From: Chitinophagaceae bacterium
GTDB lineage: Bacteria > Bacteroidota > Bacteroidia > Chitinophagales > Chitinophagaceae
Reading direction: 5' to 3'
NCBI GenBank assembly: GCA_046329585.1
Contig: JAXLUI010000001.1
Location: forward strand, 168,846 to 232,845
Length of the DNA stretch: 64,000 nt
Below, in pieces: positions 2,898-52,811 of this stretch. The notes below the pieces were generated by a model, which saw only the letters and a list, made by a program, of their open reading frames with translations, made no database searches and was not told where the DNA came from. The position numbers and the translations under genes are program-made. How positions within the stretch are numbered: position 1 is the stretch's first letter; each line of letters starts with the position of its first letter.

Positions 2898-4424
2898 TTA
2901 TTTATCTCCGCCGGCTTCGTCAATATTAAGCGGATAGCCATAAGTGCCATCGTAACCGGGGTAAATACCTTCAAGTTTCACCGTTCCCTGCGAACTCCTT
3001 AGTATAGCCGCAAGTTGGTCCATGGTTCTTACCTCTTGTCCATCGACGCTGGTAATAACAAAACCTTCCTGCATCCTTGTATTCTTCAATATACCATCCC
3101 CCAATTTTTTAACCAGCACGCCTCCGGCGATGTCATTCTTCTTCGCCGTGGCTGCGTCTAAATTTACCAATTCGCCTCCGAGTTTATCCAGCACACTTTC
3201 CTGTTTGACTGTTTCGTAAGTGCCAGCTTTATTTTTCAGGGTAATTGACGCAGTGCTTTCTTTCCCATTTCGAACGTATGTTACGTTTATTTTGTCGCCT
3301 GGTTTATACCGCAATACCTGCTCCTGTAACTCAGGTCCGGTCGCGATTGTAACACCATTCACTTTAGTAATAAAATCGCCTTTTTGCAGGCCACCTTCTT
3401 TCGCAGCACCATCGTCTGCGACACCACTTACAAATACACCTGGGCCGTCTTTAATTCCCTGGGCTTTTTTCTGCTCTTCAGAGGCGTCATCAGGAGGATA
3501 AGAAATACCGATGTATGCCTTCTGAACCGCACCATATTTCATCAGGTCGTTTACCACTTTTTTTACAATGTTAACGGGTATGGCATAGGAGTACCCGGCG
3601 TAGGAACCTGTTGGGGATGCGATGGCAGAATTAATGCCGATCAATTCCCCTTCGGTGTTGATTAACGCCCCACCACTGTTACCCGGGTTAACTGCCGCAT
3701 CGGTCTGTATGAATGATTCAATCGGGTTGGGCCCTTTGTTAATGCCAATTGAACGGGCTTTCGCACTTATTATGCCAGCTGTAACGGTTACATCAAGATT
3801 CAATGGATAGCCAATAGCCAATACCCACTGCCCCAGTTTAACATCGTCGCTGTTGCCGTAAACCATATAAGGTAAATTGCTGGCATCAATCTTAATAACG
3901 GCCAGATCGGTGTTCCTATCTGTGGCAACCACTGTACCCTTATATGTTTTCCTGTTGGACGTTGTTACGGTAACCTCATCAGCATCTTCTACGACGTGGT
4001 TGTTGGTAACAATATAACCATCATTACTTACCAGCACTCCACTGCCGCTTGCACGCTGTTCCGGGATTACTGAGCTACGTGGGCCGCCAAAAAAATCCTG
4101 GAATGGATCATCATCTCCAAAAAGATCGGAAAGTGGGCTTTTTCGTCTTGGAAGATTGTTGCTAACCTGCCTCTCTTTGGTGCGGGTTTTAATATGCACC
4201 ACCGCAGGTGTAGCCGAAGTTGATGCTGCTGTAAAGTCCACTGCACCCGCTGCCATATTGTTTTTGTCGAAAAATCCCGCATAGTTTACGGGGAGTTTTC
4301 CATCTTGCTGTAATACAACAGAGCTATAATTTCCGGCAATCTTATTATAGCCCCACATACTCAAAATGGCGGTAGAAGCACTTATGGCCACCACCAGCAA
4401 AATGTTTTTGAGTTTCATCGTCAT
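2898..4424 (-). CDS. Do/DegP/HtrA-family periplasmic serine endoprotease with two PDZ domains
   Basis: Trypsin-like catalytic motifs (HVVEDADEV, DLAVIK, GNSGGALIN) are followed by two PDZ-like segments. The N-terminus has a signal anchor (MTMKLKNILLVVAISAST). The start was chosen at the internal Met before the signal peptide. Confidence 0.85.
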   Translation of the reverse strand: MTMKLKNILLVVAISASTAILSMWGYNKIAGNYSSVVLQQDGKLPVNYAGFFDKNNMAAGAVDFTAASTSATPAVVHIKTRTKERQVSNNLPRRKSPLSDLFGDDDPFQDFFGGPRSSVIPEQRASGSGVLVSNDGYIVTNNHVVEDADEVTVTTSNRKTYKGTVVATDRNTDLAVIKIDASNLPYMVYGNSDDVKLGQWVLAIGYPLNLDVTVTAGIISAKARSIGINKGPNPIESFIQTDAAVNPGNSGGALINTEGELIGINSAIASPTGSYAGYSYAIPVNIVKKVVNDLMKYGAVQKAYIGISYPPDDASEEQKKAQGIKDGPGVFVSGVADDGAAKEGGLQKGDFITKVNGVTIATGPELQEQVLRYKPGDKINVTYVRNGKESTASITLKNKAGTYETVKQESVLDKLGGELVNLDAATAKKNDIAGGVLVKKLGDGILKNTRMQEGFVITSVDGQEVRTMDQLAAILRSSQGTVKLEGIYPGYDGTYGYPLNIDEAGGDK

Positions 4425-4675
4425 TTTATTTTTTTGTTTTTTAGTTTCTATTGCTTGGTCAAATTTCGTTCCTTTCGATAACAAAGAAACAAACCTGTTT
4501 AATCGTCAGTTGATAAATATTTCCTTTTAACATAAAATTGACGAAAGGAATCGTAGTTCTGACAATTTTTCTTGTGAATACGACAGCTCTTCTGCAACAT
4601 AAAAAAGTCTTTATTAAAACGCGGTTTTGAAACGTTGCAGTGACTATATGAAACAGCCAAAAAATTAAACAATGA

Positions 4676-9362: not shown

Positions 9363-10022
9363 ATGCAACTGACTACGGTGATTTTTGATATGGATGGGTT
9401 ACTTATCGACAGTGAACCGTTGTGGAATGAAGCGGCAGACGAGGTTTTCAGGATGTATGGCGTAAGCTTATCAGAAGAGCAGTACAATACAACCACGGGT
9501 CTACGTACGAAAGAGTTTGTGCAATGGTGGTTTCACCAGTTCAATCTTGGTGATGCCGAACATGCAAGGGCCGAAAAGCTCATCTTTGAAAAAGTGATGC
9601 AAAAAGTAGATGCCAAAGGAAGGATGATGCCGGGCGTTCATCATATCTTTCGCTTTTTTATAGAGCGCAATTTTAAAATTGGCATTGCCTCTTCTTCGCC
9701 ACAGGCACTCATCGATCTTGTTATAAAAATATGTGGCATCGGCAAATATGTAAATGGCACCGCAACCGCCGAGTATCTTCCGCATGGTAAACCGCATCCC
9801 CAGGTGTACCTCGATTGCGCTTCCACACTAAATTCCAATCCGCTCGATTGCCTTTGTTTCGAAGACTCCTTCCCCGGCATGATCGCCGCAAAAGCTGCGC
9901 GCATGAAATGCGTTGTGGTACCGCATCACAGCCAGGTAAAAGAAGAACGCTGGGCTGCAGCTGATCTAAAACTTTCCTCTTTGCAGAATTTTGGCATGCT
10001 GCATTTAAACCTTTTGCAATAG
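9363..10022 (+). CDS. HAD-IA family hydrolase (sugar-phosphatase / beta-phosphoglucomutase-like)
   Basis: HAD motif I VIFDMDGLLIDSE, motif II IGIASSS, and C-terminal FEDSFPGMIAAKAARMKCVVV. Confidence 0.7.
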   Translation: MQLTTVIFDMDGLLIDSEPLWNEAADEVFRMYGVSLSEEQYNTTTGLRTKEFVQWWFHQFNLGDAEHARAEKLIFEKVMQKVDAKGRMMPGVHHIFRFFIERNFKIGIASSSPQALIDLVIKICGIGKYVNGTATAEYLPHGKPHPQVYLDCASTLNSNPLDCLCFEDSFPGMIAAKAARMKCVVVPHHSQVKEERWAAADLKLSSLQNFGMLHLNLLQ

Positions 10023-10202: not shown

Positions 10203-10316
10203 AAAAGCCCAATAGATAGCACAAGCCGGGCCCAGAATGTTTTGTAAGCTGTATGTAATCCCGGGCAGATTTGCATCCTTGCGCTAATAGCTTATTTTTA
10301 AACCAATACTGCATTT

Positions 10317-13300
10317 ATGAGAAGAGAACTGCTACTCCTCGTACTCATTGCTTTTTGTTGCAGCGCCACTGCACAACACGCTGAAGACTTTCGACAAGCA
10401 TGGCATACGATCGACTCGCTGATGGTTGAAAAAGATCTTCCTGCTTCGGCGCTTGCAAAGGTCGATTCATTGTATAAAGCCGCAAAGGAGCAACACCGGG
10501 ACGACGAGATGATAAAGGCAGTTGTATACAAACTTTCAATCGACAGCAAGATTACAGAGCACAACATCAACGTTACTTACCGGTTATTGTGGAACGAAAT
10601 GAAAGATGCGACAACGCCTGTAACCAAGGCTGTTCTGCAGGCACTGCTTGCCGATAAAATCAATAAGCTTTACACGCAAAATATATGGCAAAACCAAAAC
10701 AGGAAAACGGTCCCGGGGAACAAGGACAGCGATATAACCAGTTGGAGCAATGAACAACTCGTTGCAGCAACAGACAGCCTTTACGAGGAGTCACTTTCTC
10801 AGGAAAGCCTATTACGTAACATTAATATCTCAGCCTATGCAGGCATAGTGCTGAGTGGTAATACTCCCGGGATTAGAACAACACTGTATGATGTGCTGGC
10901 GCACCAGGCACTTGACTACTACAAGACGGGGCTGCGTTATATAACTGAACCGGCTTATGCTTTTAAGCTGACAGACAAAAACTGCCTGGCTGTTACGGAT
11001 GATTTCATAAAGGCCGGCTTTTCCTCAAAAGACAGTGCATCGCATTTATTGAAATCAATTCACCTGTTCCAGCAGTTGCTGGCATTTCATCATAACGATT
11101 TAAATGCAGAAGCCTTTGTGGATGTAGCAATTGAACGCATTCTCTGGGTAAACACATTCGGTTCTTTCGACAACAAGGATGTACTTTATGTAAACGCGCT
11201 TCAGGACATTGCTGCGAAATACGCTAAAACAAGATCCGCTGCAGAGGCCTGGTTTCTTTTAGCCGACCGTGAATCTCAAAAGGCGGATTCTTATAAACCA
11301 ACCGGCGACTCGCTGAACAGGTATGGGTATATAAAAGCAAAAACAACTATCCTCGAACGGTTCAAGGCAATGCCGGATCATTGTTTGGGCAACGATGAAA
11401 TGAACGCCTTGCTTCACAGGATTACTAGCCCGGAGTTGAATACCGTAGCTGAAAATAATAATGTAGCCGGCCAGCCATTCAGACTATTGGTAAAATATAG
11501 GAACGTAGATACCCTGTATGCAAAAGTATTATCACAGCAAGATGTAAACAAAACCGCCCGTAAAAAAACTTATAACAAGTGGAGAGATTTGCCCGCAGTT
11601 AAGGCTTTGCAAACATTTGAGCAATGGCTACCGAAAACAAACGACTACCAGGAGCACAGTGTTGAGGTAAAAATAGACGCACTGCCGGTGGGCGACTACA
11701 GCATATTGTTCAGCAACAGTAAAGACTTCAACAACGATAAAGACAAACTCGTGTTGCAAACACTGAGTGTTTCGGAGCTCGCTTATATGCACAATGAATA
11801 TGACTACTTCGTGGTGAATCGGGAAACTGGGCATCCGGTCAAAGATGTGAAAGTCAGGGGAACAATTGAAGTAAAACGAAAAGGCAAAGACGACTGGAAA
11901 ACAAAAAAAATAAAACCGGTTTACACAGACTCGAATGGCCACATCGCATTACCTGTTGATCTAAAAAACAAGAACCGATATGGAGATGCAGACCTTCAGT
12001 TTTCAAAAGGAAAAGAAGTTTTATATTCTTTTGATCGGGCGTTTGGCTACAGCTACAGCAATAGTGAAGATGAGGATGACGACGAAGATGATTCAACTTA
12101 TGAAGATGATAACTCGTTCGTGCATTTTTTTACGGACAGAAGTATCTACCGTCCAGGCCAAACAGTTTATTTTAAAGGCATTGTACTCACCAAAGACCGA
12201 AAAACCCGAAAAGAAAAACTGTACCGGTATCCCGATAGTGCCGAGATAGACCTGAACGATGCCAATGGTAAAATGATCGACTCAATGTTTGTAAAAGTGA
12301 ATGAGTACGGCTCTTTCAGTGGAAAATTCCGTTTGCCTCAAAATGCGCTCACCGGTGAATTTTCTATAGACAGCTACGATTTCATGGATGGGGAGATCGA
12401 ATTCAACGTGGAAGAATATAAGCGCCCAACATTCTATATGGAATTTGATGGCATAAAAACCGCTTACCGGGTTAAAGACACGATTACTATTTCCGGCTAT
12501 ATAAAAGCCTATGCCGGTAACGCGGTCGACAACGCAAAGCTGACTTACAATGTCGAGCGGTCGGCATCCTTCCCATACCCTTACTTGTTTTGGAAAACGA
12601 GACGCCCTTATTCAGGCACGGAAGAAATCGCAACCGGTTCAGTTGACGTAGATGCAAACGGGAAATTTGAGATCAGGTTTGTTGCTATGCCCGATAGTTC
12701 TGTTGATAAGAACTCAGAACCTTTTTTCAATTTTTCGGTCGACATATCGGTAACTGATGCAAACGGTGAGACAAGGGAAGGCAAAACAAACATCAATATC
12801 GGCTATAAGTCTTTATTGTTGCAGATAACCGTTCCCGGTATAGCAGATGCCGGGAATTTTCAAAACATATTTGTTACCACAAAAAACTGCGCAGGGGAGA
12901 ATGTTCCCGCCAATGTTCTGCTAAAGGTAAGCAAATTAAAGGTTCCCTCAAAAGCCTACCGCACCCGGCAATGGGAAAGACCAGACCAGTTCATTTTCGA
13001 CAAGGCGGCCTACCAAAATTACTTTCCAAACGATGAATACGAAGCGGAAGCCGACTACCATGAATGGGTTAAAATGCCAGCCGAGGTGCTTGACACATTC
13101 AATACGGCAACGAGTTCGGCGTTCAGGATAAAACAACCCCTGCTGCAGGGCTGGTATTGCGTTGAAGCAACAACAAAAGATAATGATGGCATGGAAGTAA
13201 AAGACGTTCGCTACTTCCAGTTGTACGATATGGACGAACCAGGGCTTCCATCTCCCCAGGTGAATTTTTCTAAAGTGCTAAACAATTCGGGTTTGTCCGG

Positions 13301-16300
13301 AGACAGGATGCAGCTAATGCTTGGAACAAGCGAAAGCGATGTATTTGCCATTCAGAAATTAACCCGGCAGGGAACGGATACGACGGGTTCTTTAAATTAT
13401 ATTAACCTGGACAATGGAAAACAAAAGCTCACATATGTGCTTAAGCCTACAGACAAAGATAATCTCGGTATGTTCTACGCCTTTATTAAACACAATTGCT
13501 TTTATACAGGAGGAATGCAGGTATATATAAACGATGCCTTGAAAAACCTGCAGATAACTTATTCAACCTATCGCAATAAAACAGAACCAGGAAGCAAAGA
13601 AACCTGGTCGGTGCAGGTAACCAACCCGGCAAACTCGAAGACTGATGCGGAAGTATTAACGGCTATGTATGATGCTTCACTTGACCAGTTTAAAAAACAC
13701 GAGTGGGAGATCCCAGTTTCTGAAAGACGCACGTATATCCGCAACGAATGGCAGGCAGATAATTTTGGAAGGCAGTCATCGGATGCGAACATGCTGCCCG
13801 GTTTTATTATTACAGAGACAAAGCAGTATGCGAAGCTTGGAAAAAGTATTACGGATTTCGTTTCGGGTTATCAGCCCTTAAGCACAAGGCCGGCGGCTAT
13901 CAAGACAGCATTTAGTTTCCCGGAAAATACGCCTGCCAACTATCTCCGGATATTGGGTGTAGTAAAAAGTATGAGAGACAAAGAACCGGTTGCCGGTGTT
14001 ACCGTGCTGGCAAAAAATAACAGCATAGGCACAACTACAAACGCTGCGGGTGAATTTGCTTTAGCGGTTCCACCAAATACAGAAAGTCTAATAATGAGTT
14101 CCGTTGGGTTCCAGTCTTTAGAGGTTCGGCTTGACAAAACCACGGTCCAGGCATTTTTAAAAGAACAGTCTTCTAACCTTAACGAAGTGGTAGTAACCGG
14201 ATACGGCAGCGCATTAAAGAAAGATCTTACAGGTTCGGTGGCTGGTATCCAGGTACAGGCATTGTCAGATACTGTTTCTTTTAAGATGAAAATACGGGGT
14301 ATCGCCAGCGTAGCTGACGCCAATACGTTGCTCGTGATTGTCGACGGCGTAGTGGTTGACAAAAAGATCGGTGATATTAACACAAGCGACATCGAATTTG
14401 TAACAGTTTTAAAGGGTGCCGAAGCAGTAAATATCTATGGTACCAGCGCAGCCAGCGGGGCTATTCTTGTTACTACCAAAGAATACGCCTTGCGCAATGG
14501 AAACAAGAAAGACGAAACTCCTGTGCTGCGGGTGAGAAAAAATTTTAATGAAACCGCTTTCTTTCTCTCACAATTGCATGCCGATAGCTCGGGGAAATTT
14601 ACTTTCAGCTTCACCATGCCCGATGCATTAACACAATGGAAATGGATGACATTGGCGCATACAAAAGACTTGCAATTTGGATTGCGAAATGAAAACATCG
14701 TAACGCAAAAAACGCTGATGGTACAGCCAAACTTGCCAAGATTTTTTACACAGGACGACACGCTCTTGCTAACCACAAGAATCAGTAACCTGTCCGATTC
14801 GGTAGTCGCTGGCTCTGCTTACGTCGCATTTTTTGACGCCACGACCAACCAGCAATTGAGCAATTTTGCAAAAGCAATCGATGAACAGCAGGTGTTCAAA
14901 GTTGAGGCAGGCAGAACGACTACGATAAAGTTTCCTGTGTACATTCCAACTGGCATCATTAAACCCGTTACAATAAGAGTTATTGCAAGCGCCGGCAAAT
15001 ACAGCGACGGAGAAGAAAACACTTTGCCAGTTCTGAGCAACCGTACGCTGGTAACAGCATCCTTGCCGCTGTTTATGAAAACAGGGGGGGCAAAAAATTT
15101 CAAATTCAACAAGCTAGTGACCAACACTTCAAGCACGGCATCTACTGAAAGCCTTACGGTTGAATATACGCCAGATCCAATATGGGCTTGCATAACGTCG
15201 TTGCCTTACCTGATGGAGTTTCCGCATGAATGCGCCGAGCAAACCTTTAACCGCTTTTATGCAAACGAACTATCGTCTTATATCATTGCAACACATCCGG
15301 CAATAAAAAAAGTGCTGGAAAAATGGCGTACAGATTCCACAGCACAGCTCGGCTCCCTGGTAACGAACCCGGAACTAAAACAGGTACTGCTCAACGAAAC
15401 GCCATGGGTATTTGATGCAGGAAATGAAACCCAACAACGCAACAATCTTGTGCGCCTGCTCGATACAACGGAAAATGACAAGCAGGCAGTGGCCGCGTTG
15501 CAAAAATTAAAACAAATGCAAAAAAAAGACGGAGGCTTTGCGTGGTTTACAGGTGGCCAGTCAGATCGTTACATAACACAGTATATTTTAACAGGAATTG
15601 CAAGGTTGAAAAAAATGTATGCCGTTCCGGAAAATGCGCAAGCCATAATTGATGATATCAGTAGTAAAGCCTTAACCTACCTCGATAAGAGAACATCCGA
15701 CGATTTTGAGGCAATGCTCAAGAGAAAGGTGGATCTCAGCGCTAACCTTCTTGATCCAATCACAGTGCAATATTGGTACATGCGCAGTATGTTTGGCAGT
15801 GAAAATGAAAACGGCTTTCCTGAAAAGGCCTTCCGTTTTGCAAGGGTCCAGGCGGAAAAATACTGGGCAACGCAATCGCCTTATATGCAGGGAATGCTGG
15901 CCATCGCACTCAATAATCTCTTCCCGGTTATAAAGCCACTCACAAAAGTCAGGAACACACAACTCGATATCGTTAATTCCTTAAAAGAAAACGCGGTCAG
16001 CGACTCCGTTAAAGGAACATCCTGGAAAATTAATGACGGTTATCATTGGTACGAGTCGCCGGTAGAAATGCAGTCTTTATTGATCGAAGCATTCGACGAA
16101 ATCATACCTGGTGACAGCATTATCATAGCTATGAAGCAGTGGCTGATTATGAATAAGCAAACCAATAACTGGTCTACCACCAGGGCAACCGCAGATGCAT
16201 GCACCGCATTGCTTTCGGGCGATATAGGCATTCCTTTGCAGTCAACTGTTGTGTCAATTAAATTGGGCGACTCAACCATTGGTAATGATGCAGGAACAGC

Positions 16301-16916
16301 AGCGTATGGCGATGGCACTGGCTATCTCAGGCACCACATCGATGGAAGAAACGTGCAACCTTCTATGGGTAACATCAATGTTACAGTAACTAAAAAAGTG
16401 AATGGCAATTTTCCTGGCGTTTCCTATGGAGCTGTGTACTGGCAATATTTTGAAGACGCAGACAAAGTGACTTCTGCCAATAACGCATCGCCTTTCTTCA
16501 TATCAAAACAGTTGTTCATCGAACAAAATACTGACAAAGGCAAAGTGCTTCGGCAGATCAATGCGGACAATGAATTGAAAGTTGGCGACAAAATAATCAT
16601 TCGCCTTGTCATCAAATGCGACCGCGATATGGAATACATTCATCTTAAAGATATGCGTGCATCAGCGATGGAACCTGACAACGTATTAAGTGAGTACAAA
16701 TGGCAGGACGGAGTTGGTTACTATCAAAGCACGAAAGATGCCTCAACCAATTTCTTTATCAGCAACATCAGCAAAGGAACTTATGTGCTAGAATACCCGG
16801 TTCATCTCACACACAGTGGATCTTTTACCACCGGTATCGCCGGTATTCAATGCATGTATGCCCCGGCCTATGCCGCACACAGCGATGGAATACGCATCAA
16901 CGTGCAACCGCAATAA
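10317..16916 (+). CDS. Alpha-2-macroglobulin (MG2/A2M) family protein, 2,199 aa, with a CAEQ thioester motif and an internal SusC-like CarbopepD_reg + TonB-plug module
   Basis: Signal peptide. Repeated MG-domain starts (FFTDRSIYRPGQTVYFKG). Thioester-region motif FPHECAEQTFNRFYAN. An internal segment YLRILGVVKS...VVVTGYGSALKKDLTGSV...KMKIRGIASV...LLVIVDGVVVD...DIEFVTVLKGAEAVNIYGTSAASGAILVTTK matches a SusC N-terminal module. Confidence 0.8.
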   Translation: MRRELLLLVLIAFCCSATAQHAEDFRQAWHTIDSLMVEKDLPASALAKVDSLYKAAKEQHRDDEMIKAVVYKLSIDSKITEHNINVTYRLLWNEMKDATTPVTKAVLQALLADKINKLYTQNIWQNQNRKTVPGNKDSDITSWSNEQLVAATDSLYEESLSQESLLRNINISAYAGIVLSGNTPGIRTTLYDVLAHQALDYYKTGLRYITEPAYAFKLTDKNCLAVTDDFIKAGFSSKDSASHLLKSIHLFQQLLAFHHNDLNAEAFVDVAIERILWVNTFGSFDNKDVLYVNALQDIAAKYAKTRSAAEAWFLLADRESQKADSYKPTGDSLNRYGYIKAKTTILERFKAMPDHCLGNDEMNALLHRITSPELNTVAENNNVAGQPFRLLVKYRNVDTLYAKVLSQQDVNKTARKKTYNKWRDLPAVKALQTFEQWLPKTNDYQEHSVEVKIDALPVGDYSILFSNSKDFNNDKDKLVLQTLSVSELAYMHNEYDYFVVNRETGHPVKDVKVRGTIEVKRKGKDDWKTKKIKPVYTDSNGHIALPVDLKNKNRYGDADLQFSKGKEVLYSFDRAFGYSYSNSEDEDDDEDDSTYEDDNSFVHFFTDRSIYRPGQTVYFKGIVLTKDRKTRKEKLYRYPDSAEIDLNDANGKMIDSMFVKVNEYGSFSGKFRLPQNALTGEFSIDSYDFMDGEIEFNVEEYKRPTFYMEFDGIKTAYRVKDTITISGYIKAYAGNAVDNAKLTYNVERSASFPYPYLFWKTRRPYSGTEEIATGSVDVDANGKFEIRFVAMPDSSVDKNSEPFFNFSVDISVTDANGETREGKTNINIGYKSLLLQITVPGIADAGNFQNIFVTTKNCAGENVPANVLLKVSKLKVPSKAYRTRQWERPDQFIFDKAAYQNYFPNDEYEAEADYHEWVKMPAEVLDTFNTATSSAFRIKQPLLQGWYCVEATTKDNDGMEVKDVRYFQLYDMDEPGLPSPQVNFSKVLNNSGLSGDRMQLMLGTSESDVFAIQKLTRQGTDTTGSLNYINLDNGKQKLTYVLKPTDKDNLGMFYAFIKHNCFYTGGMQVYINDALKNLQITYSTYRNKTEPGSKETWSVQVTNPANSKTDAEVLTAMYDASLDQFKKHEWEIPVSERRTYIRNEWQADNFGRQSSDANMLPGFIITETKQYAKLGKSITDFVSGYQPLSTRPAAIKTAFSFPENTPANYLRILGVVKSMRDKEPVAGVTVLAKNNSIGTTTNAAGEFALAVPPNTESLIMSSVGFQSLEVRLDKTTVQAFLKEQSSNLNEVVVTGYGSALKKDLTGSVAGIQVQALSDTVSFKMKIRGIASVADANTLLVIVDGVVVDKKIGDINTSDIEFVTVLKGAEAVNIYGTSAASGAILVTTKEYALRNGNKKDETPVLRVRKNFNETAFFLSQLHADSSGKFTFSFTMPDALTQWKWMTLAHTKDLQFGLRNENIVTQKTLMVQPNLPRFFTQDDTLLLTTRISNLSDSVVAGSAYVAFFDATTNQQLSNFAKAIDEQQVFKVEAGRTTTIKFPVYIPTGIIKPVTIRVIASAGKYSDGEENTLPVLSNRTLVTASLPLFMKTGGAKNFKFNKLVTNTSSTASTESLTVEYTPDPIWACITSLPYLMEFPHECAEQTFNRFYANELSSYIIATHPAIKKVLEKWRTDSTAQLGSLVTNPELKQVLLNETPWVFDAGNETQQRNNLVRLLDTTENDKQAVAALQKLKQMQKKDGGFAWFTGGQSDRYITQYILTGIARLKKMYAVPENAQAIIDDISSKALTYLDKRTSDDFEAMLKRKVDLSANLLDPITVQYWYMRSMFGSENENGFPEKAFRFARVQAEKYWATQSPYMQGMLAIALNNLFPVIKPLTKVRNTQLDIVNSLKENAVSDSVKGTSWKINDGYHWYESPVEMQSLLIEAFDEIIPGDSIIIAMKQWLIMNKQTNNWSTTRATADACTALLSGDIGIPLQSTVVSIKLGDSTIGNDAGTAAYGDGTGYLRHHIDGRNVQPSMGNINVTVTKKVNGNFPGVSYGAVYWQYFEDADKVTSANNASPFFISKQLFIEQNTDKGKVLRQINADNELKVGDKIIIRLVIKCDRDMEYIHLKDMRASAMEPDNVLSEYKWQDGVGYYQSTKDASTNFFISNISKGTYVLEYPVHLTHSGSFTTGIAGIQCMYAPAYAAHSDGIRINVQPQ

Positions 16917-16988
16917 ATTTTACAAAAGCTTTTTCATTCGCCAATTGTGTTTTATGTTGCCGGCTGCAGTTTTTCATGGCATCGGCTC

Positions 16989-17007
16989 TTGCGTCGCACT
17001 CTTGTAC
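16989..17007 (+). repeat. Family-1 repeat (forward), left arm of the pair upstream of A2M-2
   Basis: ttgcgtcgcactcttgtac, preceded by catggcatcggctc. This is nearly identical to the 24-nt flank at 10055. Confidence 0.85.
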
Positions 17008-17100
17008 GGTAGCATACAAATCAGAAAAAGCCATAGTCCGCATTTATCATTTGCCGAAGCAGTTGCGGTTTGCGTCTTTGCAGAATTCCGTTCAAACCGC

Positions 17101-17118
17101 ATAAGAGTGCGACGCAAC
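17101..17118 (-). repeat. Family-1 repeat (reverse, variant), right arm of the pair upstream of A2M-2
   Basis: ataagagtgcgacgcaac. Confidence 0.7.
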
Positions 17119-17253
17119 AGTTGATGAGGGCAGTGCAAAAGCCCGGACACAAAAATTACTCGCTGTTTTTAAAATATAGCATGCGGGCTTTATGCATTTT
17201 CTTTAGCATTGCATCCTCCTAATATCACTAAATTGTGTCACCAATTTTTTTTC

Positions 17254-20200
17254 ATGAAAAGGATATTGCTGTTTGTTTTTTTGCTGACCGGGTTTGCTAA
17301 AACGATTTTTGCTCAATCAAAAGACTCCACATACAAAAAACAATGGGCGGAGATCGATTCACTGGTACTTGAAAAAGGTTTGCCAAAATCTGCCTTGAAA
17401 AATACAAATGCTTTGTATACGCAAGCCAAAGCAGAAAAGCAGCAAGATGAAGCAATTAAAGCGCTGCTTTACAGGCTGGCACTCGAACCACAGGTAACAG
17501 AAACCGATGTTAATAAGCAGATCGCGTCCATTAGTGAAGAAATCGCTGCCGCTGGTGATGAAGCCGAAGCAGCCGTGCTGAACACCATACTGGCAGCTGT
17601 GTACGAGGATTTTTTCAACAATAACTCCTACCGTTTCTACAACAGGGCCGCAACAAAAAAATTCGCCAAAGCGGATGTTAATACCTGGAGTGCGGATGAT
17701 TTTAACGATACCATTAGCAGTCTTTATAATAAAGCAATGACTGCTGCAGCCATATTACAACAGCAACCGGCAAACAGGTTTGAAGCACTGGTAATAAAAG
17801 GCAATGCCGGAAACCTTCGCCCGACATTATATGATTTGCTTGCACATAAAGCGTTAGACTTTTACAAAAACAGCAATCGCTTTGTTACAAAGCCGTCGTT
17901 TGCATATGAGATAACTGCGCCAGCAGCCCTGGCTCCTGCTGATGAATTTATCATACATCGCTTTTCATCCGTTGACAGTGCTTCTAATTTGCTACAGGCA
18001 CTTTTACTATTTCAGCAACTAACGAAATTCCACAGCAAAGATGTTGATCCGTCTGCCTATATCGATATAGATATCGAACGCCTTGAATGGGTAAAAGAAA
18101 ATAGTACAATCAATGAAACGGATTCATTATATAAAATTGCACTCGAAGCGATCACCGCAACTTTCCCGGACAATGCAGCAACATCGCAGGCATGGTATCT
18201 TTTGATAAAAATTGTCGCGGACAAGGCGGCTGAATACAATCCGTTTGGCGATACTACGCATCGCTACGGTTATGTAAAAGCAAAACAACAGATCGAAGAA
18301 AGATTGACAAAGCAACCAGCTAAATCAGAAGGCAACAGCAACATGCAGCAGTTGCTCAATGAAATTGTAAAGAAAGAATTAAAAACACAGGTAGAGAATG
18401 TAAATGTGCCAGGCCAGCCCTTCAGGATGTACGTTCAATACCGGAATGTGCAAACAATGCATCTTCGCATTATTAACGCCGCGGCGCTTGCCGGGATGCC
18501 CGGTACGGATCAATATGAAGAAGGCTACTGGAAAGCTGTTACCCAATTGCCTTACCTGACATCATCTATTCAACAACTACCTGATACAAAGGATTACCAG
18601 CAACATGCCACTGAGATAAAAATTGATCCGCTTGAGCCTGGCAGTTACGCAATACTGGCTTCATCATCTGCCAATTTTAATGACAGCACCGATAAACTTA
18701 TGCTGCAACGGTTTGATGTATCTGGCATCAGTTATATTGCCAGCAACGCCGACTATTTTATACTGAACAGGGAAACCGGTCAGCCATTAAAAAATGTAAA
18801 AGTGAAGTATGAATTCCTCCAATGGGATTACAAGGAAAGAGAATTTGTTGTAAGTAATTCAGGCAGCCTGTTGCCAGATGCCAACGGCTTTGTTACCCTG
18901 AAAGATCGTATAAAAGGAAATGACAGGAATTATGCGCTCACCATTTACCAGGGCAAGGACTCTTTGAAGACCAACCAGGATAACCGCTATGTTCCTTACA
19001 ACAACGAAAAAGACGACAAAACAACGCCACCTGATTTTGAAAAAAGGCATACCCAGTTCTATTTCTTTACCGACAGAAGTATTTACCGGCCCGGGCAAAC
19101 CGTTTATTTCAAGGCGATTGCTGTAACAAAAAATCAACAAACAGGCAAACCAATGCTGGCTTCAATAAAGGAAGCATTGAACCTGGTTTTGAAGAATACG
19201 AACGGGCAAAAAATTGATACGATCACTATTAAATTAAACAGCTACGGTTCTCTGTCCGGTTCCTTTAAATTACCGCTACAGACCCTAACCGGCAATTTTT
19301 CCATCATAGCAGAAAAATACAATGGCACTGCAAATTTTAATGTGGAAGACTATAAACGTCCTACATTTTTCGTGGAGTTTGACACGTTAAAATCGACATA
19401 CCGGCTAAACGATAGTATAAAAATAACAGGCGCTGTGAAAGCATACGCGGGGAATAACCTTGATGGCGCAAAAATTAAATTCAATGTGCACCGCGATACA
19501 AGGTTTATTTATCCATGGCTGTTTTGGCGTAAAATAAGGCCGGCTACTTCGTCCCAACAGATTGCACAGGGAGAAATTATAACGGACGCCGAAGGAAAGT
19601 TCGAAATACTTTTCGTAGCACAGCCTGACCGATCCGTCGATAGTTCCGGCGACCCGGTTTTTGATTTTAGCATTGATGCGGCAGTCACAGACATAAATGG
19701 TGAAACAAGAGATGGCAGCACCCAATTATCAGTTGGCTACAAATCGTTGCAACTACAACTCTCAGTTCCCGGCATTGCAGACCTAAACAAGTTTGATACT
19801 ATTGGAGTTACCACCGAAAATTTTTCAGGCAATAAGGTTGCCGCCAATGTAAAACTGAATATCTACCCGCTCACGGTTCCCACTGAAATAGTACGCAACC
19901 GTTATTGGGAAAGACCCGATCAGTTTGTGATGCCGAAAGATGATTACAAAAGATTATTTCCCTACGACGAATATGCTGACGAATCAGATTATCATAGCTG
20001 GGAAAAAAAAGCAAGCGTTTTTTCTGGTTCGGTAAAAACCGCGGACTCATCTTTTATAAAAATTGCAAAGGGCATTTTAAAACAAGGCTGGTATGCAATA
20101 GAAGCCGTAAGCAAAGACAAAGATGGTAACGAAGTAAAGGATGTCGCTTATACCGCGTTGTATGATGAACAATCGGCTTCACTCCCCTCGCCTCAGATCG

Positions 20201-23200
20201 AGTGGAATGCAGCTATAAAAACGGAAGGCCAGCCCGGTGAGAAAGCAAAACTGTTGCTCGGCACAAGTGATAAAGATGTTTATGTTATTCAACAATTGCA
20301 AAAGAATCGGGATGACAAGCGGGAGGATCAATACGCATATTTTAAACTCAGCAATCAGAAACAAACAATCGAAACCGAAATAACAGAACAAAGCCGCAAA
20401 GGCCTTGGCCTTTATTATGCTTTTGTAAAACACAACCGTGTTTATTCCGGTGGTATAAATGTATATGTGCCATATACTGACAAAGACCTGGACGTTGTTT
20501 ATAAGACTTACCGCAATAAAACAGAACCGGGCAGCAAAGAACAATGGACGGTTGAGGTGAAAGGGAATAAAGGAGAAAAAACAACAGCTGAATTGTTAAC
20601 TGCCATGTATGACGCATCGCTTGACCAGTTTAAGCCGCATGAATGGATTTTACCGGATTTATGGCCTGTTGGATATACCAATAACAGCTTTTTAGCCGAT
20701 GATAATTTTGCTGCAGTAAATTCAGAAGAAAATAACATCCAGGTTAACGCGCCTTATTTTGAAAAGATTTATAATGAGCTCGTTGTAAACGGAGAAGCTT
20801 TTTGGGTTAAACTCAACAGCGTGTCTTACCCTGTTGGGATGCTGTCAGAACAAAATAAGGTGGTGATGTACAACGCTCCACTGGCCCTTGAACAGGCACC
20901 AAGACGCCTGATGGTTACTAAATTTACCGCACCAAAGATCGTAGCTGACGAAGAGTTAGCTGAACCCCTGCAATCAACCGGCGATATTAGGGGCGCCGTT
21001 AAGAAGAAAGAGGTGCCATCTTTCCAGCCTCGAAAAAATTTCAACGAAACAGCCTTCTTCATCCCTGATCTGTACGCTGATACCTCAGGAAATTACAGCT
21101 TTAGTTTTACCATTCCTGAGGCGTTGACACAATGGAAGTGGATGGTCCTCGCTCATACAAAAAATCTGGCGTTTGGTTATAAACAAAAAAAGATCATTAC
21201 GCAAAAAAGCCTGATGGTTCAACCAAACCTACCCAGGTTTGTCCGCGAAGGAGACCAGATGGAAGTACCAATCAGGGTGACCAATCTTGCTGACACAATC
21301 CTGACCGGAAAAGCAACATTGCAATTATTTGACGCAATAACAAATGACCCTGTCGACGGTGCTTTTCAGAGTGTATTTCCCGACCAGTATTTTACTGTCG
21401 AACCAGGAAAAAGCAGCGAAATAAAGTTCCCAGTCAGTATTCCTTTTGGATTCAATAAACCGGTAACAATCAGAATTATTGCTGAAGCAGGCGGTTATTC
21501 AGACGGCGAAGAAAATACTTTACCATTGTTAACCAACAGGGCACTTGTTACAGAAAGCCTTCCGCTCTTTCTGCGTGGTGACGGTAGCAAGCAGTTTAAA
21601 TTTGAGAAGTTGGCCGGCAATAATTCGGCAACACTTACCAATGAAAGCATTACCGTTGAATATACGCCCAACCCTATCTGGTTTGCCATACAGGCATTAC
21701 CCTATGTAGCCGAAGCGAAAAACAATAGTGCTGAACAGGTATTTAACCGTTTTTATGCAAATACAATGGCTGCCTACCTCTTAAAACAGCACCCCCGAAT
21801 CAAGGCCGTCTTCGATAAATGGAGGGCTGATACATCTGCACTCAAAAGCAATCTTGAGAAGAACCCTGAATTAAAACAGGCACTGCTGGAAGAAACGCCA
21901 TGGATTATAGATGCTACGAATGAAACACAGCAAATGAAAAACCTGGCTATACTTTTTGACTTGTCAAATATGAGCGATGCCACGCAGGCGTCACTGCAGC
22001 AATTAAAACAAATGCAGTTGCCCGACGGTTCCTTTTCGTGGTTTAGGGGCGGTTACCCCGATAGATATATTACGCAAACTATTCTCACAGGCATAGGCAG
22101 GTTAAAAATGCTCAACGCCATTTTGCCGGATCAAACGGCAGAACTCAACGGCATTGCACTTAGGGCGCTAAACTACTCCGACAACGAGATCACCAGGGAA
22201 TATGATCTTATCGTGAAAAGCAAGGTGGATAAAAACAAAAACAACCTTTCCGCTTCTGGCATCCAATATCTTTTCATGAGAAGTTATTTTAAAGATGTTC
22301 CGCTAAAAGACAAAAATGCACATAGTTTTTATTTCTTCCAGGCAATGAAATACTGGAATACACAATCTGTTTATCTGAAAGGAATGATCGCTGCAACTTT
22401 ATTCCGTAACTATTTCAGAACGTACACCTACAAAAACATTATTCCATCCATTCTCGAGAATACAATTGAAGACCCCGCAAAGGGCATGTATTTCAAAAAC
22501 AGCCAATGGGGTTATTACTGGTATCAAAACCCTGTAGAACAGCAGTCGCTCATGATAGAATTACTTAACGAAATGCAACCGTTTTTCAAAGACGCACAAA
22601 TGAAATCTGCGGTCAACGATATGCGTACATGGCTTTTACTCAATAAACAAACAAACAATTGGAAAACAACAAAAGCCACGGCCGATGCTTGCTATGCGCT
22701 ACTGTTAAACAGTGAACATGAAATAACCGACAACAGAACAGTACAGGTGAAACTCGGAAATAAACTGCTCCCGCAGGATGCAGCCGCCGAGGGCACGGGG
22801 TATATCAAAACCCGGATTGATGGAACTGCCGTAAATAACACGCTTGGAAACATAGCGATTACAGTTAAATCAAACGACACCGCAAACCATGCGAACTCGC
22901 CTTCGTGGGGTGCTGTTTACTGGCAGTATTTTGAAGATCTTGATAAAATAACTCCCGCTGCTACTCCCCTGTCACTTAACAAAAAACTATTTATAGAAAC
23001 GAATACCGCTTCCGGCAAAGTGCTTGTCCCGGTTAACGATAATGATGAATTGAAAGTTGGTGACAAAGTAGTCATTCGTTTGGAACTTCGCAGCGACCGC
23101 AACATGGAATACCTGCACCTGAAAGATATGCGCGCCTCGGCAATGGAACCATCGAACGTGCTTAGCGGATTTAAATGGCAGGACGGCCTTGGTTACTATG

Positions 23201-23385
23201 AAGCAACAAAAGACGCCTCATCCGATTTTTTTATCGATCATCTTTCCAGGGGCACTTACGTTTTCGAATACCCATGTTACATTACGCAGCGCGGTAATTT
23301 TTCGGTAGGTATTGCAACCATTCAGTGCATGTATGCGCCCGATTTCAGCAGTCACAGTGAAGGCATCAGGATCAATGTGGAGTAA
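17254..23385 (+). CDS. Alpha-2-macroglobulin (MG2/A2M) family protein, paralog 2, about 2,043 aa. The thioester Cys is replaced (SAEQ) and there is no plug insertion.
   Basis: Signal peptide MKRILLFVFLLTGFAKTIFAQ. Collinear homology to the upstream paralog (FFTDRSIYRPGQTVYFKA, RKNFNETAFF, LTQWKWMVLAHTK, VTIRIIAEAGGYSDGEENTLP). The thioester position reads AKNNSAEQVFNRFYAN. Confidence 0.8.
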   Translation: MKRILLFVFLLTGFAKTIFAQSKDSTYKKQWAEIDSLVLEKGLPKSALKNTNALYTQAKAEKQQDEAIKALLYRLALEPQVTETDVNKQIASISEEIAAAGDEAEAAVLNTILAAVYEDFFNNNSYRFYNRAATKKFAKADVNTWSADDFNDTISSLYNKAMTAAAILQQQPANRFEALVIKGNAGNLRPTLYDLLAHKALDFYKNSNRFVTKPSFAYEITAPAALAPADEFIIHRFSSVDSASNLLQALLLFQQLTKFHSKDVDPSAYIDIDIERLEWVKENSTINETDSLYKIALEAITATFPDNAATSQAWYLLIKIVADKAAEYNPFGDTTHRYGYVKAKQQIEERLTKQPAKSEGNSNMQQLLNEIVKKELKTQVENVNVPGQPFRMYVQYRNVQTMHLRIINAAALAGMPGTDQYEEGYWKAVTQLPYLTSSIQQLPDTKDYQQHATEIKIDPLEPGSYAILASSSANFNDSTDKLMLQRFDVSGISYIASNADYFILNRETGQPLKNVKVKYEFLQWDYKEREFVVSNSGSLLPDANGFVTLKDRIKGNDRNYALTIYQGKDSLKTNQDNRYVPYNNEKDDKTTPPDFEKRHTQFYFFTDRSIYRPGQTVYFKAIAVTKNQQTGKPMLASIKEALNLVLKNTNGQKIDTITIKLNSYGSLSGSFKLPLQTLTGNFSIIAEKYNGTANFNVEDYKRPTFFVEFDTLKSTYRLNDSIKITGAVKAYAGNNLDGAKIKFNVHRDTRFIYPWLFWRKIRPATSSQQIAQGEIITDAEGKFEILFVAQPDRSVDSSGDPVFDFSIDAAVTDINGETRDGSTQLSVGYKSLQLQLSVPGIADLNKFDTIGVTTENFSGNKVAANVKLNIYPLTVPTEIVRNRYWERPDQFVMPKDDYKRLFPYDEYADESDYHSWEKKASVFSGSVKTADSSFIKIAKGILKQGWYAIEAVSKDKDGNEVKDVAYTALYDEQSASLPSPQIEWNAAIKTEGQPGEKAKLLLGTSDKDVYVIQQLQKNRDDKREDQYAYFKLSNQKQTIETEITEQSRKGLGLYYAFVKHNRVYSGGINVYVPYTDKDLDVVYKTYRNKTEPGSKEQWTVEVKGNKGEKTTAELLTAMYDASLDQFKPHEWILPDLWPVGYTNNSFLADDNFAAVNSEENNIQVNAPYFEKIYNELVVNGEAFWVKLNSVSYPVGMLSEQNKVVMYNAPLALEQAPRRLMVTKFTAPKIVADEELAEPLQSTGDIRGAVKKKEVPSFQPRKNFNETAFFIPDLYADTSGNYSFSFTIPEALTQWKWMVLAHTKNLAFGYKQKKIITQKSLMVQPNLPRFVREGDQMEVPIRVTNLADTILTGKATLQLFDAITNDPVDGAFQSVFPDQYFTVEPGKSSEIKFPVSIPFGFNKPVTIRIIAEAGGYSDGEENTLPLLTNRALVTESLPLFLRGDGSKQFKFEKLAGNNSATLTNESITVEYTPNPIWFAIQALPYVAEAKNNSAEQVFNRFYANTMAAYLLKQHPRIKAVFDKWRADTSALKSNLEKNPELKQALLEETPWIIDATNETQQMKNLAILFDLSNMSDATQASLQQLKQMQLPDGSFSWFRGGYPDRYITQTILTGIGRLKMLNAILPDQTAELNGIALRALNYSDNEITREYDLIVKSKVDKNKNNLSASGIQYLFMRSYFKDVPLKDKNAHSFYFFQAMKYWNTQSVYLKGMIAATLFRNYFRTYTYKNIIPSILENTIEDPAKGMYFKNSQWGYYWYQNPVEQQSLMIELLNEMQPFFKDAQMKSAVNDMRTWLLLNKQTNNWKTTKATADACYALLLNSEHEITDNRTVQVKLGNKLLPQDAAAEGTGYIKTRIDGTAVNNTLGNIAITVKSNDTANHANSPSWGAVYWQYFEDLDKITPAATPLSLNKKLFIETNTASGKVLVPVNDNDELKVGDKVVIRLELRSDRNMEYLHLKDMRASAMEPSNVLSGFKWQDGLGYYEATKDASSDFFIDHLSRGTYVFEYPCYITQRGNFSVGIATIQCMYAPDFSSHSEGIRINVE

Positions 23386-49105: not shown

Positions 49106-49229
49106 AACAGTTGTTTTTGTTTGGTCTGTTTAATTGTATCAGCCATTAAAATAACAAATATGTTTGTATCCTGTTAGCGCCTGTACATTTTTATTCTGCA
49201 CATATGGCAACCTTAACTACTTTAGCCGC

Positions 49230-52759: not shown

Positions 52760-52811
52760 AAGACAACATACACAAACCGCAGGCCTAACGTATAAAGCCA
52801 AAGAAAGGAAA

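Follow-up and report, generated by a model that had tools for sequence, protein, structure and literature searches.

An adjacent pair of anciently diverged Bacteroidota-type alpha-2-macroglobulins, one with an intact thioester motif and a SusC-type module in its bait region, the other with serine in place of the thioester cysteine

Two very large genes lie next to each other in the 64-kb window (the whole stretch of Chitinophagaceae DNA analysed here, 64,000 nucleotides), and the locus raises the question of what two alpha-2-macroglobulin (A2M)-like proteins, one with and one without the cysteine of the thioester motif, might be doing side by side. The original prediction of two adjacent, collinear homologs of 2,199 and about 2,043 amino acids agreed with the open reading frames and with their alignment, in which identity was 42% over the first ~1,165 residues and 51% over the last ~818; the blocks that it had listed as common (RKNFNETAFF, LTQWKWM.LAHTK and ..YSDGEENTLP) are indeed found in both. 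The two proteins, here called par1 and par2, have 100% matches at NCBI, namely HNP22022.1 ('MG2 domain-containing protein [Panacibacter sp.]') and HNP22023.1 ('alpha-2-macroglobulin family protein [Panacibacter sp.]'), respectively; the par2 sequence is found under three NCBI accessions, all identical. The par2 reading frame spans positions 17209-23385; its start was placed at the ATG at 17254, giving a protein that begins MKRILLF..., in agreement with the starts of its orthologues P0121 and P0122.

Placement of both proteins in the A2M family, as originally proposed, was borne out by Pfam, in which MG2, A2M and bMG10 (PF17973, the bacterial MG10 at the C-terminus) all exceeded their curated cut-offs. 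In par2 these domains scored 65.2, 71.4 and 101.5 bits, respectively, while in par1 the A2M domain scored 63.2 bits and the other two are given in Table 1; the cut-offs are 21 bits for A2M and 26.2 for bMG10. The A2M domain aligns with residues 707-807 of A2ML1. The Pfam thioester domain (TED) model had no match in either protein; nonetheless, an AlphaFold2 (AF2) model of par1 residues 1150-2199, in which the helical domain at residues ~1622-1966 was confidently modelled, matched Salmonella A2M (4u48; E 3.8e-30) and ECAM (5a42 and 4ziu) in Foldseek, with E values of ~1e-28 to 1e-30 for the three structures, and also matched C3, C5 and TEP1. The 51% identity with par1 over the C-terminal part suggests that par2 has the same thioester-domain fold. 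At the other end, the N-terminal model (pLDDT 87) has a TPR-like domain and, after it, MG-like sandwiches with a match to the NIE-MG1 part of ECAM.

Table 1. Features of the par1-par2 locus (positions in the window).
Feature	Position	Strand	Remarks
Upstream element of par1, ATGTAAT-N11-TTGCATC	10253..10277	+	Family-conserved
par1 CDS	10317..16916	+	2,199 aa, ATG start; Bacteroidota-type alpha-2-macroglobulin, CxEQ motif intact
par1 signal peptide	10317..10373	+	Ends ..SATA|Q, SPase-I type, Gln at +1; read from sequence, predicted cleavage site
par1 N-terminal domain	10389..11426	+	aa ~25-370; all-helical, TPR-like; hallmark of the Bacteroidota family
par1 acidic linker, SNSEDEDDDEDDSTYEDDNS	12057..12116	+	aa 581-600; precedes MG2 domain; disordered
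par1 MG2 domain (PF01835)	12120..12374	+	66.9 bits, cut-off 32.8
par1 bait-region interval	13695..14534	+	~280 aa, YDASLDQF block to RKNFNETAFF block
par1 SusC-type NTE (CarboxypepD_reg-like), within bait	13950..14195	+	PF13715, 59.9 bits, cut-off 32.2; aligns with residues 43-140 of SusC 8aa4
par1 TonB-box-like heptad NEVVVTG	14181..14201	+	By sequence comparison with Bt1763
par1 TonB-dependent-receptor Plug core	14223..14492	+	PF07715, 34.4 bits, cut-off 23.9, profile positions 27-107 of 107
par1 A2M domain (PF00207)	14553..14804	+	Directly after bait region; MG7 by analogy with human A2M
par1 thioester domain, alpha/alpha toroid	15180..16214	+	aa ~1622-1966; AF2 model and Foldseek
par1 thioester motif C-A-E-Q	15231..15242	+	aa 1639-1642; reads HE-C-AEQ, context F-P-H-E-C
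par1 bMG10 domain (C-terminal MG)	16500..16865	+	100.7 bits; contains ..QCMY.. motif (read from sequence)
Inverted pair of REP-like 20-mer	16980..17126	.	Gap between par1 and par2; potential ~26 bp stem
Upstream element of par2, ATGCATT-N10-TTGCATC	17192..17215	+	Counterpart of the par1 element
par2 CDS	17254..23385	+	2,043 aa; same family as par1; short bait, without Plug module, thioester Cys replaced by Ser
par2 bait motif FTAPKIVADEE	20923..20955	+	Similar motifs in other Plug-less baits
par2 S-A-E-Q at thioester position	21727..21738	+	aa 1492-1495; reads NN-S-AEQ, codon AGT

Both proteins are members of a large, separate Bacteroidota family that is neither YfhM-type nor YfaS-type, and in which an SPase-I signal is followed by the TPR-like N-domain, an MG array, the TED and MG10. 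A search with the N-terminal domain alone returned ~1,600 clusters at E<=1e-10, and no biochemical study of any member was found in the searchable literature. Several database sources name members of this family 'YfaS'. The acidic tract of par1, originally described as an insert absent from par2, turned out not to be an insert, as the par2 linker is equally long (a 2-residue gap); the tract itself is common to the par1 clade and other family members, and the model assigned a pLDDT below 50 to residues 576-591. The signal peptides of par1 and par2, as read from the sequences, both end in A|Q. A lipobox is not conserved across the orthologues, nor is any Cys in the signal region, the first Cys of par2 not occurring before residue 1813. 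A type IX secretion (T9SS) C-terminal domain was not found by Pfam in either protein; Pfam does detect one in another gene of the window, at 38295-39899.

In a neighbor-joining tree, par1 clustered with P0001-P0008, every one of which is Plug-bearing, and par2 with P0121 and P0122 (AKNDCAEQ), then with P0123-P0125 (YQQDC, YPHDC and YKNEC) and then with the YPYEC group. A recent tandem duplication was considered and rejected, the identity being 42-51% and each copy having closer orthologues elsewhere. The two genes thus stem from paralogue lineages that separated long ago and happen to be neighbors here.

The cysteine originally predicted for par1 and the serine for par2 at the thioester position were upheld by an in-register alignment of 231 homologues, which included distant members with the canonical YPYGCTEQ. 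In this column Cys occurs in 215 of the 231, to which par1 adds a further Cys and par2 a Ser; conservation is also high throughout the YPYEC..NRFYAN block around it, and together these point to selection for thioester chemistry. Two tyrosines, at -4 and -2 relative to the Cys, form a protective pocket in SaA2M and ECAM (PMC4498604). In par1 the residue at -4 is still aromatic and that at -2 is His rather than Tyr, which may leave the stability of a par1 thioester doubtful and counts against the reading of par1 as a covalent trap. In par2, of which the context is A-K-N-N-S, both pocket tyrosines are gone; most of the family-invariant residues are kept. The replacement of Cys by Ser in par2 is a single base change (T-to-A, AGT for TGT); the nearest orthologues retain the Cys. 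The Ser is real, since three NCBI accessions give the identical protein and AKNNSAEQ is also the reading of an independent fragment from ENA (P0407). The pocket was lost stepwise in the par2 lineage (YPYEC to AKNDC to AKNNS), with the Cys being lost last. Absence of the thioester is also seen in several independent lineages of the family (P0054, P0060, P0065 and P0086-P0100), and proteins that lack it are still counted as members of the A2M superfamily.

The most unusual feature of the locus, overlooked in the original prediction, is the presence of a SusC-type NTE, a TonB-box-like heptad and a Plug domain within the par1 bait region, which is long compared with the family mode of 120-140 residues. 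Residues 1212-1392 of par1 align with the NTE domain, TonB box and Plug core of SusC and RagA proteins of solved structure, although overlapping alignments indicate that the stretch from the TonB box to the Plug core is shorter in par1 by ~24 residues. The Plug core contains the SusC/RagA signature (TIGR04057, 41.1 bits, below the cut-off of 46.2), while TIGR04056 scored 142 bits against a cut-off of 368, matching only profile positions 3-109 of 981. Profile searches found no beta-barrel domain after the Plug, and the sequence runs straight into the A2M domain; since the 22-strand beta-barrel is absent and an A2M domain directly follows, par1 is not a TonB-dependent transporter. Some relatives carry the name 'TonB-dependent SusC/RagA subfamily outer membrane receptor' in the source databases. 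The motif L[ND][ED]VVV[TV]GYG was found in the bait of 44 of the 185 family members, including some short-bait members without a Plug, with just two further occurrences outside the bait; IRG and VLK..A..YG..A.NG.I..TTK, both structural motifs of the Plug, are also retained. Bait regions are normally disordered and fast-evolving, and the insert was modelled at low confidence (pLDDT 30-40 for the NTE). Considering, however, that the TonB box and Plug motifs are conserved in the family, the module appears to be more than a floppy bait. The SusC module and TonB box are both absent from par2, and no paper describing a SusC N-terminal module in an A2M bait region was found in the literature.

The genomic surroundings were examined for partners of the pair. 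No PBP gene was predicted in the window, which held true within the ORFs scanned and by the sizes of the remainder: a transglycosylase or transpeptidase domain was absent from 30 neighboring ORFs, including all three candidates of at least 600 residues, and the seven other plausible ORFs of at least 150 residues encode 380 residues or fewer, too short for PBP1C. The lack of pbpC had been presented as a departure from expectation; however, the YfhM/pbpC and YfaS-operon classes were described from Proteobacteria (PMC3735191) and are different from this family. Its members are solitary among unrelated genes in seven loci from other genera (with both flanks or one visible), so that absence of pbpC is the family norm and not an anomaly; none was called beside the orthologues in L009-L011 and L014-L016, and the orthologue neighborhoods are unlike one another. 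The flanking genes in the window are MutS, HAD, DAO, three without a Pfam match, and OmpA, the immediate neighbors of the pair being the HAD hydrolase and the DAO oxidoreductase. The six-gene mag/yfa operon was not found at the locus, as judged from the Pfam content of the flanking genes.

Each gene is preceded by a conserved element of its own, which probably combines a TTG box at -33 with an operator upstream of it. The pattern has two matches in the window, one per A2M gene, against an average of 0.125 in shuffled sequences, and inspection by eye showed related elements before the orthologues of L001-L003, L009-L011 and L014-L016, those of L001, L003, L009 and L015 deviating from the strict pattern. 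Over 82 nucleotides around the par2 element, identity to the L010 orthologue is 91%, compared to 70% between the proteins. Since each gene has its own conserved element, par1 and par2 are probably transcribed separately but regulated jointly. The repeat pair noted earlier in front of each gene is real; it is not gene-specific, being a dispersed REP-like element of ~20 nucleotides, GTTGCGTCGCACWCTTGTRC, that occurs 18 times in the window, where 1.3 copies would be expected, and is present in many of the intergenic gaps. The inverted pair between par1 and par2 has a predicted folding energy of -62.6 kcal/mol (z -3.5).

Overall, the locus encodes two anciently diverged giant A2Ms of the Bacteroidota type, par1 being the conservative and par2 the derived copy, and we consider it probable that par1 is a covalent and par2 a non-covalent trap, the two being most likely complementary protease traps of the periplasm. 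Both share a common build of TPR-like helical domain, MG array, bait, A2M domain, thioester domain and C-terminal MG10, and would be exported by their Sec/SPase-I signal peptides, presumably to the periplasm. With its C-x-E-Q site kept, par1 would most likely act as a 'Venus-flytrap' that captures proteases covalently, and the SusC-like module may serve as the exposed segment, the cleavage or binding of which triggers the trap. In the par2 lineage the SusC module disappeared first, the two pocket tyrosines next and, in this species only, the Cys last. As its thioester Cys is lost, par2 would be limited to steric, non-covalent trapping, the mode proposed for the thioester-less MagD class, with a corresponding division of labor between the two proteins.

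The SusC-type module invites a different account of par1, in which the TonB box in its bait binds the periplasmic C-terminal domain of TonB and the module docks or senses force. Such a TonB-engaged macroglobulin might be an A2M devoid of a lipobox that is tethered to the inner-membrane Ton complex, comparable to the lipid anchor of ECAM and the MagB partner of MagD, or one in which the pull of TonB unfolds the Plug module and springs the trap mechanically. Agreeing with this, NEVVVTG is a single residue off the experimentally defined box of Bt1763 and is placed after the NTE exactly as in SusC, its recurrence in the family, even in Plug-less short baits, is unexpected for a disordered bait, the Plug motifs are kept, and the family has no conserved lipobox. 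However, the motif is missing from three quarters of the family, par2 among them, in proteins that remain intact, and is thus dispensable for the core function, and slow decay of one ancestral insertion fits the pattern equally well; moreover, no TonB/ExbBD genes adjoin the locus among the neighboring ORFs scanned, and TonB binding by par1 is putative. We regard this account as unlikely, and hold with similarly low expectation that an ancestor of the family captured a SusC N-terminus into its bait and that par1 still uses it, be it for coupling to TonB-ExbBD or as a decoy. If coupling were correct, the embedded TonB box would link the thioester trap in the periplasm with the TonB-ExbBD motor, for tethering or force-triggered activation; as a decoy, the module would mimic that portion of the most abundant transporters of the cell which faces the periplasm, and would capture proteases or toxins directed at TonB boxes and plugs. 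Either would constitute a new way of arming or triggering an alpha-2-macroglobulin.

It is quite improbable that par2 is merely a redundant copy drifting to loss of function, with Cys to Ser as the latest step of relaxed selection. The stepwise erosion in its clade (YPYEC, Y..DC, AKNDC, AKNNS), the additional loss of the SusC module and TonB box, and the adjoining intact paralogue would all suit such decay, but the 2,043-residue frame is intact and its sequence identical across assemblies, identity with par1 is 51% across the C-terminal 818 residues, most family-invariant positions are kept, the gene has its own conserved upstream element, and independent thioester-less lineages persist. We give as little credence to the proposal that neither protein is mainly a protease inhibitor, the two having another envelope role such as chaperoning or binding unassembled SusC-type transporters or periplasmic clients. 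A family-specific, TPR-like protein-binding domain of 350 residues, the SusC fragment embedded in par1 and the lack of a conserved genomic link with proteases or PBPs are in keeping with it, and protease inhibition by family members is itself a prediction; against it stand the conservation of CxEQ and its surrounding block, and the retention of the full trap architecture (MG ring, A2M domain, TED and MG10).

When compared with known systems, the par1 module resembles SusC/RagA transporters such as Bt1763 and RagA in its NTE, TonB box and Plug core, the box of Bt1763 being 82-DEVVVTG-88 (PMC7782687) and thus one residue apart from NEVVVTG; it differs in being internal to a soluble A2M and in missing the 22-strand beta-barrel. 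Class 2 A2Ms, exemplified by MagD of Pseudomonas aeruginosa and YfaS of E. coli, resemble par2 in the lack of the thioester Cys and in the non-lipoprotein signal peptide, both reported for MagD (PMC3735191). However, of the two proteins only par2 lacks the Cys, which is present in par1 and in 215 of 231 relatives, and par2 keeps x-A-E-Q, descends from thioester-bearing ancestors of its own family, has the TPR-like N-domain that ECAM and MagD lack, and is not part of a six-gene mag/yfa operon.

The class 1 proteins, ECAM (YfhM) and Salmonella Sa-A2M, share the MG2, A2M and bMG10 domains with par1 and par2, an MG10 with the ..MY.. motif and, in par1, CxEQ at the aligned position, and they provided the best structural matches for the C-terminal 800 residues, even though sequence identity is only ~15%. 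Lacking a lipobox, par1 and par2 differ in not being inner-membrane lipoproteins, and also in having no adjoining pbpC, in the added N-domain of ~350 residues (~400-550 residues longer overall), in the pocket (Y/Y in class 1, F/H in par1 and A/N in par2), and in the folded SusC module of the par1 bait. Finally, the MG-TED architecture and CxEQ motif are held in common with eukaryotic A2M, C3, TEP1 and CD109 (Foldseek E 1e-22 to 1e-28) at ~12% identity, the bacterial-type MG10, the TPR-like N-domain and the SusC module of par1 being the differences; in this group C5 is a thioester-less member beside thioester-bearing paralogues, as is par2 beside par1.

As first described, the two neighbouring genes amount to a modest curiosity, i.e., ordinary alpha-2-macroglobulin (A2M) paralogues that are already annotated publicly. 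On exact look-up, the upstream gene, par1, was found as HNP22022.1, HNP43662.1 and MFN8268765.1 (‘MG2 domain-containing protein [Panacibacter sp.]’), and the adjoining par2 as HNP22023.1, HNP43661.1 and MFN8268766.1 (‘alpha-2-macroglobulin family protein [Panacibacter sp.]’); since these numbers run consecutively, the genes are adjacent in all three assemblies. What has gone undescribed is the variant that they represent, characterized by a SusC-type NTE/TonB-box/Plug module in the bait region, a TPR-like domain, and a family-wide upstream element. The original prediction of collinear, homologous neighbours was borne out, with 42% of positions identical in the N-terminal ~1,165 residues and 51% in the ~818 at the C-terminus, and all the common sequence blocks that it quoted were found in both proteins. 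Its assignment to the A2M family was equally sound, as Pfam MG2, A2M and bMG10 scored well over curated cut-offs in both. From its ATG, par2 begins MKRILLFVFLL, and its orthologues P0121 and P0122 start identically. In an independent 5.96-Mb ENA contig, both A2M genes are broken into short frameshifted pieces (P0258, P0406-P0408), which is probably long-read indel error and not biology.

Features of the A2M gene pair and of the surrounding window
Feature	Window position (nt)	Strand	Residues (aa)	Details
par1 ORF	10317-16916	+		2,199 aa
par2 ORF	17209-23385	as par1		ATG at 17254, giving 2,043 aa
Upstream element ATGTAAT-N~11-TTGCATC, par1	10253-10277			
Upstream element ATGTAAT-N~11-TTGCATC, par2	17192-17215			
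Acidic tract, par1	12057-12116		581-600	
CarboxypepD_reg-like domain, par1 bait				PF13715, 59.9 bits
TonB-box-like heptad, par1 bait				NEVVVTG
TonB-dependent-receptor Plug core, par1 bait				PF07715, 34.4 bits
Thioester-column Cys, par1			1639	HE-C-AEQ
Thioester-column Ser, par2	21727-21729		1492	NN-S-AEQ, codon AGT
F-T-[AP]-P-K-I-V-x-D-E-E copy, par2	20923-20955		1224-1234	
GTTGCGTCGCACWCTTGTRC sites	2721-60957			18 sites, e.g. 10069/10191, 16989/17107, 34128/34333, 57692/57831
HtrA/DegP-like trypsin-PDZ periplasmic protease	2898-4484	-		6 kb upstream of par1
BD-FAE esterase	38295-39899	-		T9SS C-terminal sorting domain
Class-A-type beta-lactamase family gene	49164-50144	+		
HlyD-OEP-ABC-FtsX-FtsX cluster	51512-57655			
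Sigma-54 two-component pair	57897-60561			follows the HlyD-OEP-ABC-FtsX-FtsX cluster

Within par1, the bait interval, taken from the YDASLDQF block to the A2M-domain start RKNFNETAFF, spans ~280 aa against a family mode of 120-140 aa, and carries a CarboxypepD_reg-like domain, a TonB-box-like heptad and a Plug core, with a SusC/RagA signature just below cut-off. Residue for residue, this interval can be aligned to solved SusC/RagA structures across their NTE, TonB box and plug, and shares their order; in SusC Bt1763, too, the experimentally defined TonB box (82-DEVVVTG-88) follows the NTE (PMC7782687). It differs from the transporters in that no beta-barrel follows the Plug, which rules out a mis-annotated TonB-dependent receptor; some sources do call par1 relatives transporters by name. 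A Plug occupies the bait position in ~40 of 231 homologue clusters, among them P0088, P0091 and P0095 of the most divergent clade, and 44 of 185 members have the motif L[ND][ED]VVV[TV]GYG in their bait region, with just two occurrences in the remainder of those proteins. Some short, Plug-less baits retain this motif; the most complete module is that of par1 and its 70% orthologue P0001, and the par2 clade has no part of it. By sequence comparison, capture in an ancestor and repeated later decay would fit the history of the module. In the literature, we found no A2M described as carrying a Plug or a TonB box, and a homologue search with the par1 insert alone returned only short NTE+Plug proteins, not revealing the origin of the module. 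Three such proteins (P0232, P0235, P0253; 250-320 aa, NTE and Plug only) are not obviously fragments, since they are encoded on long contigs of 39-268 kb, and Bacteroidota may thus have the SusC N-terminal module as a separate protein too. The Plug-less baits of par2, P0009, P0015, P0024, P0037 and P0121-P0123 have a different common motif, F-T-[AP]-P-K-I-V-x-D-E-E, possibly a favoured site of cleavage or recognition.

The motif register at the thioester site, as originally read, proved right in an alignment of 231 homologues over their final 820 residues, including distant members with a Pfam TED domain and the canonical YPYGCTEQ: par1 has Cys at the thioester column and par2 has Ser. The par2 codon is one transversion from TGT. 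Sequencing error was ruled out, and the Ser is real, because the identical protein stands under three NCBI accessions and P0407, a frameshift-broken fragment of the independent ENA assembly, also reads AKNNSAEQ; no strain variants were found at this codon in two metagenome DNA scans. In SaA2M and ECAM, the thioester is protected by a hydrophobic pocket made up of two Tyr residues, -4 and -2 relative to the Cys (Tyr1175/1177 and Tyr1183/1185; PMC4498604); in par1, Phe is retained at -4, and His occupies -2. When 204 full-length members were placed in a neighbour-joining tree, par1 clustered with P0001-P0008, all of which are Plug-bearing and read FP[HY]ECAEQ. par2 clusters with P0121 and P0122 (AKNDCAEQ), and outward from this group are P0123-P0125 (YQQDC, YPHDC, YKNEC), P0132 (TQQEC) and then a YPYEC group. 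From this motif series and the Tyr pocket of SaA2M/ECAM, it follows that in the par2 lineage the pocket residues went first, and the Cys last and only in this species; its loss is a neat, reproducible single-base change that closes a visible stepwise decay. Independent losses of the Cys were found elsewhere in the family (P0054, SENES; P0060, KTNES; P0065, CPNES; and the P0086-P0100 group).

A recent tandem duplication is ruled out by the 42-51% identity of the pair, the 70-72% orthologues of each copy, and their separate clades. The HtrA-LuxC-Fer4-MutS-HAD-par1 block was found again with P0001 (locus L009), and the par2-DAO-255aa-330aa-OmpA block with P0122 (L010) and P0123 (L011). Upstream of P0123 is rpoC, not a par1-type gene; in Parafilimonas terrae, as in four further loci, par1-type genes are solitary; and in L016, where the contig stops just past the par2-type gene, no par1-type gene lies upstream. 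A 28-nt repeat, with one mismatch between the copies, terminates L009 and opens L010, and synteny with the window is seen in the outer flanks of both, which is suggestive, though only that, of a tandem pair in a ~70%-identity relative with assemblies broken at the repeat, the two contigs being of different samples and sharing only the repeat. The HtrA/DegP-like gene (L009 2675-4204) is part of the block whose order the window shares with the P0001 locus. In two other genomes, par1-type orthologues have MacB/FtsX-type ABC permease genes in runs on their flanks (L014 1-8809 and 16440-24460, seven genes; L015 16428-18845), and the window has an HlyD-OEP-ABC-FtsX-FtsX cluster of its own. The original prediction that the window lacks a PBP gene held up across 30 scanned neighbouring ORFs, none of which has a transglycosylase or transpeptidase domain; seven other plausible ones encode at most 380 aa. 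Its YfhM/pbpC versus YfaS framing used the wrong reference classes. Neither pbpC nor a conserved partner gene was found in any locus compared for synteny. The beta-lactamase family gene of the window is unrelated to the pair.

Each of the two start codons is preceded, at 45-70 nt, by the element ATG[TC]A[AT]T-N9-13-[TC]GCATC, for which these are the only two matches on both strands of the window, while shuffles average 0.125. Related elements, several of which deviate from the strict pattern, are visible upstream of the A2M gene in L001, L002, L003, L009-L011 and L014-L016, spanning several genera and including a Flavobacterium MAG. About 17 nt past the element is TAAATTGT or TAATTTGT, which resembles the Bacteroidetes -7 box TAnnTTTG. 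Because the element and this sequence precede both genes, the two are apparently driven by separate but similar promoters, and the conserved pattern points to a possible family-specific regulator or promoter. A consensus scan of the par1-par2 gap found no intrinsic terminator and a single sigma-70-like match, on the minus strand and at chance level; no Rfam family matched anywhere in the window. In L011 and L016, the public gene calls of P0123 and P0125 are apparently ~66 nt late (~9935-10000 in each), as an upstream in-frame ATG opens a signal peptide (MKKIFLLS..) at the usual distance from the element. A repeat pair does precede each gene, as originally noted, but its tie to these genes did not stand: the ~20-nt element GTTGCGTCGCACWCTTGTRC has 18 copies in the window against 1.3 expected, spread over many intergenic gaps, which rules out gene-specific regulatory elements. 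The copies, often in inverted pairs 90-350 nt apart, look like a dispersed REP- or MITE-like repeat; the pair in the par1-par2 gap is predicted to form a long stem, and L009 and L010 carry a variant, ACAAGTGAGTGACACAAC, at their contig ends. The acidic tract of par1, earlier taken for an insert, is a compositional difference, since the par2 linker is equally long, and acidic linkers recur across the whole par1 clade as well as in further family members.

In an AlphaFold model of par1 residues 1150-2199 (mean pLDDT 71), a confident helical domain spans ~1622-1966, and the best PDB matches were Salmonella A2M 4u48 (E 3.8e-30) and ECAM (5a42, 4ziu), followed by C3, C5, TEP1, CD109 and human A2M. 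These matches confirm, at the level of a predicted model, the MG7-TED-MG10 architecture. A PDB sequence-profile search reached MG2, the A2M domain and a weak TED piece, nothing more; the thioester register relative to ECAM was taken from bridging homologues and structure search in its place. A large family is marked out by its N-terminal TPR-like domain: when 1.84 billion cluster representatives were scanned in full with HMMER, it was found in 2,353 clusters at E<=1e-3, in 1,593 at 1e-10 and in 462 at 1e-30, and in full-length matches it is always at the N-terminal end of a ~2,000-aa protein. Named members belong to Chitinophagaceae, Sphingobacteriales, Flavobacteriia and other Bacteroidota. 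Since the family signal peptides finish in ..A|Q without a conserved lipobox Cys, and Pfam found no T9SS C-terminal domain in par1 or par2, we infer that both are soluble and periplasmic. Such a domain was found in another window gene, the BD-FAE esterase, which is unrelated to the pair.

The best-supported reading of these sequences is that par1 and par2 would complement each other as protease traps of the periplasm: trapping by par1 would be covalent, via its thioester, the SusC-derived module acting as bait or trigger, and par2 would trap purely sterically, as likened to the thioester-less MagD class (PMC3735191). The main rival is that the module is no simple bait and may instead dock on TonB, as a tether or as a means of activation by force. 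The TonB-box and Plug motifs are conserved in the bait position, whereas bait regions are normally disordered, variable and not conserved; indeed, a conserved TonB box is unexpected in what we take to be a soluble periplasmic protein. Lesser rivals are that par2 is drifting to loss of function, and that the family is not primarily inhibitory. The pair offers a natural within-genome comparison between a full thioester site with module and a protein that has lost module, pocket and Cys, and could reveal the separate contributions of thioester and bait module.

To our knowledge, studies of bacterial macroglobulins have been confined to Proteobacteria. Two Proteobacterial classes are recognized, one of lipoproteins with pbpC and the other encoded in the mag operon. 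The present locus exemplifies a large third class, that of the Bacteroidota, with a TPR-like domain, no fixed partners, and a function that is predicted from sequence.
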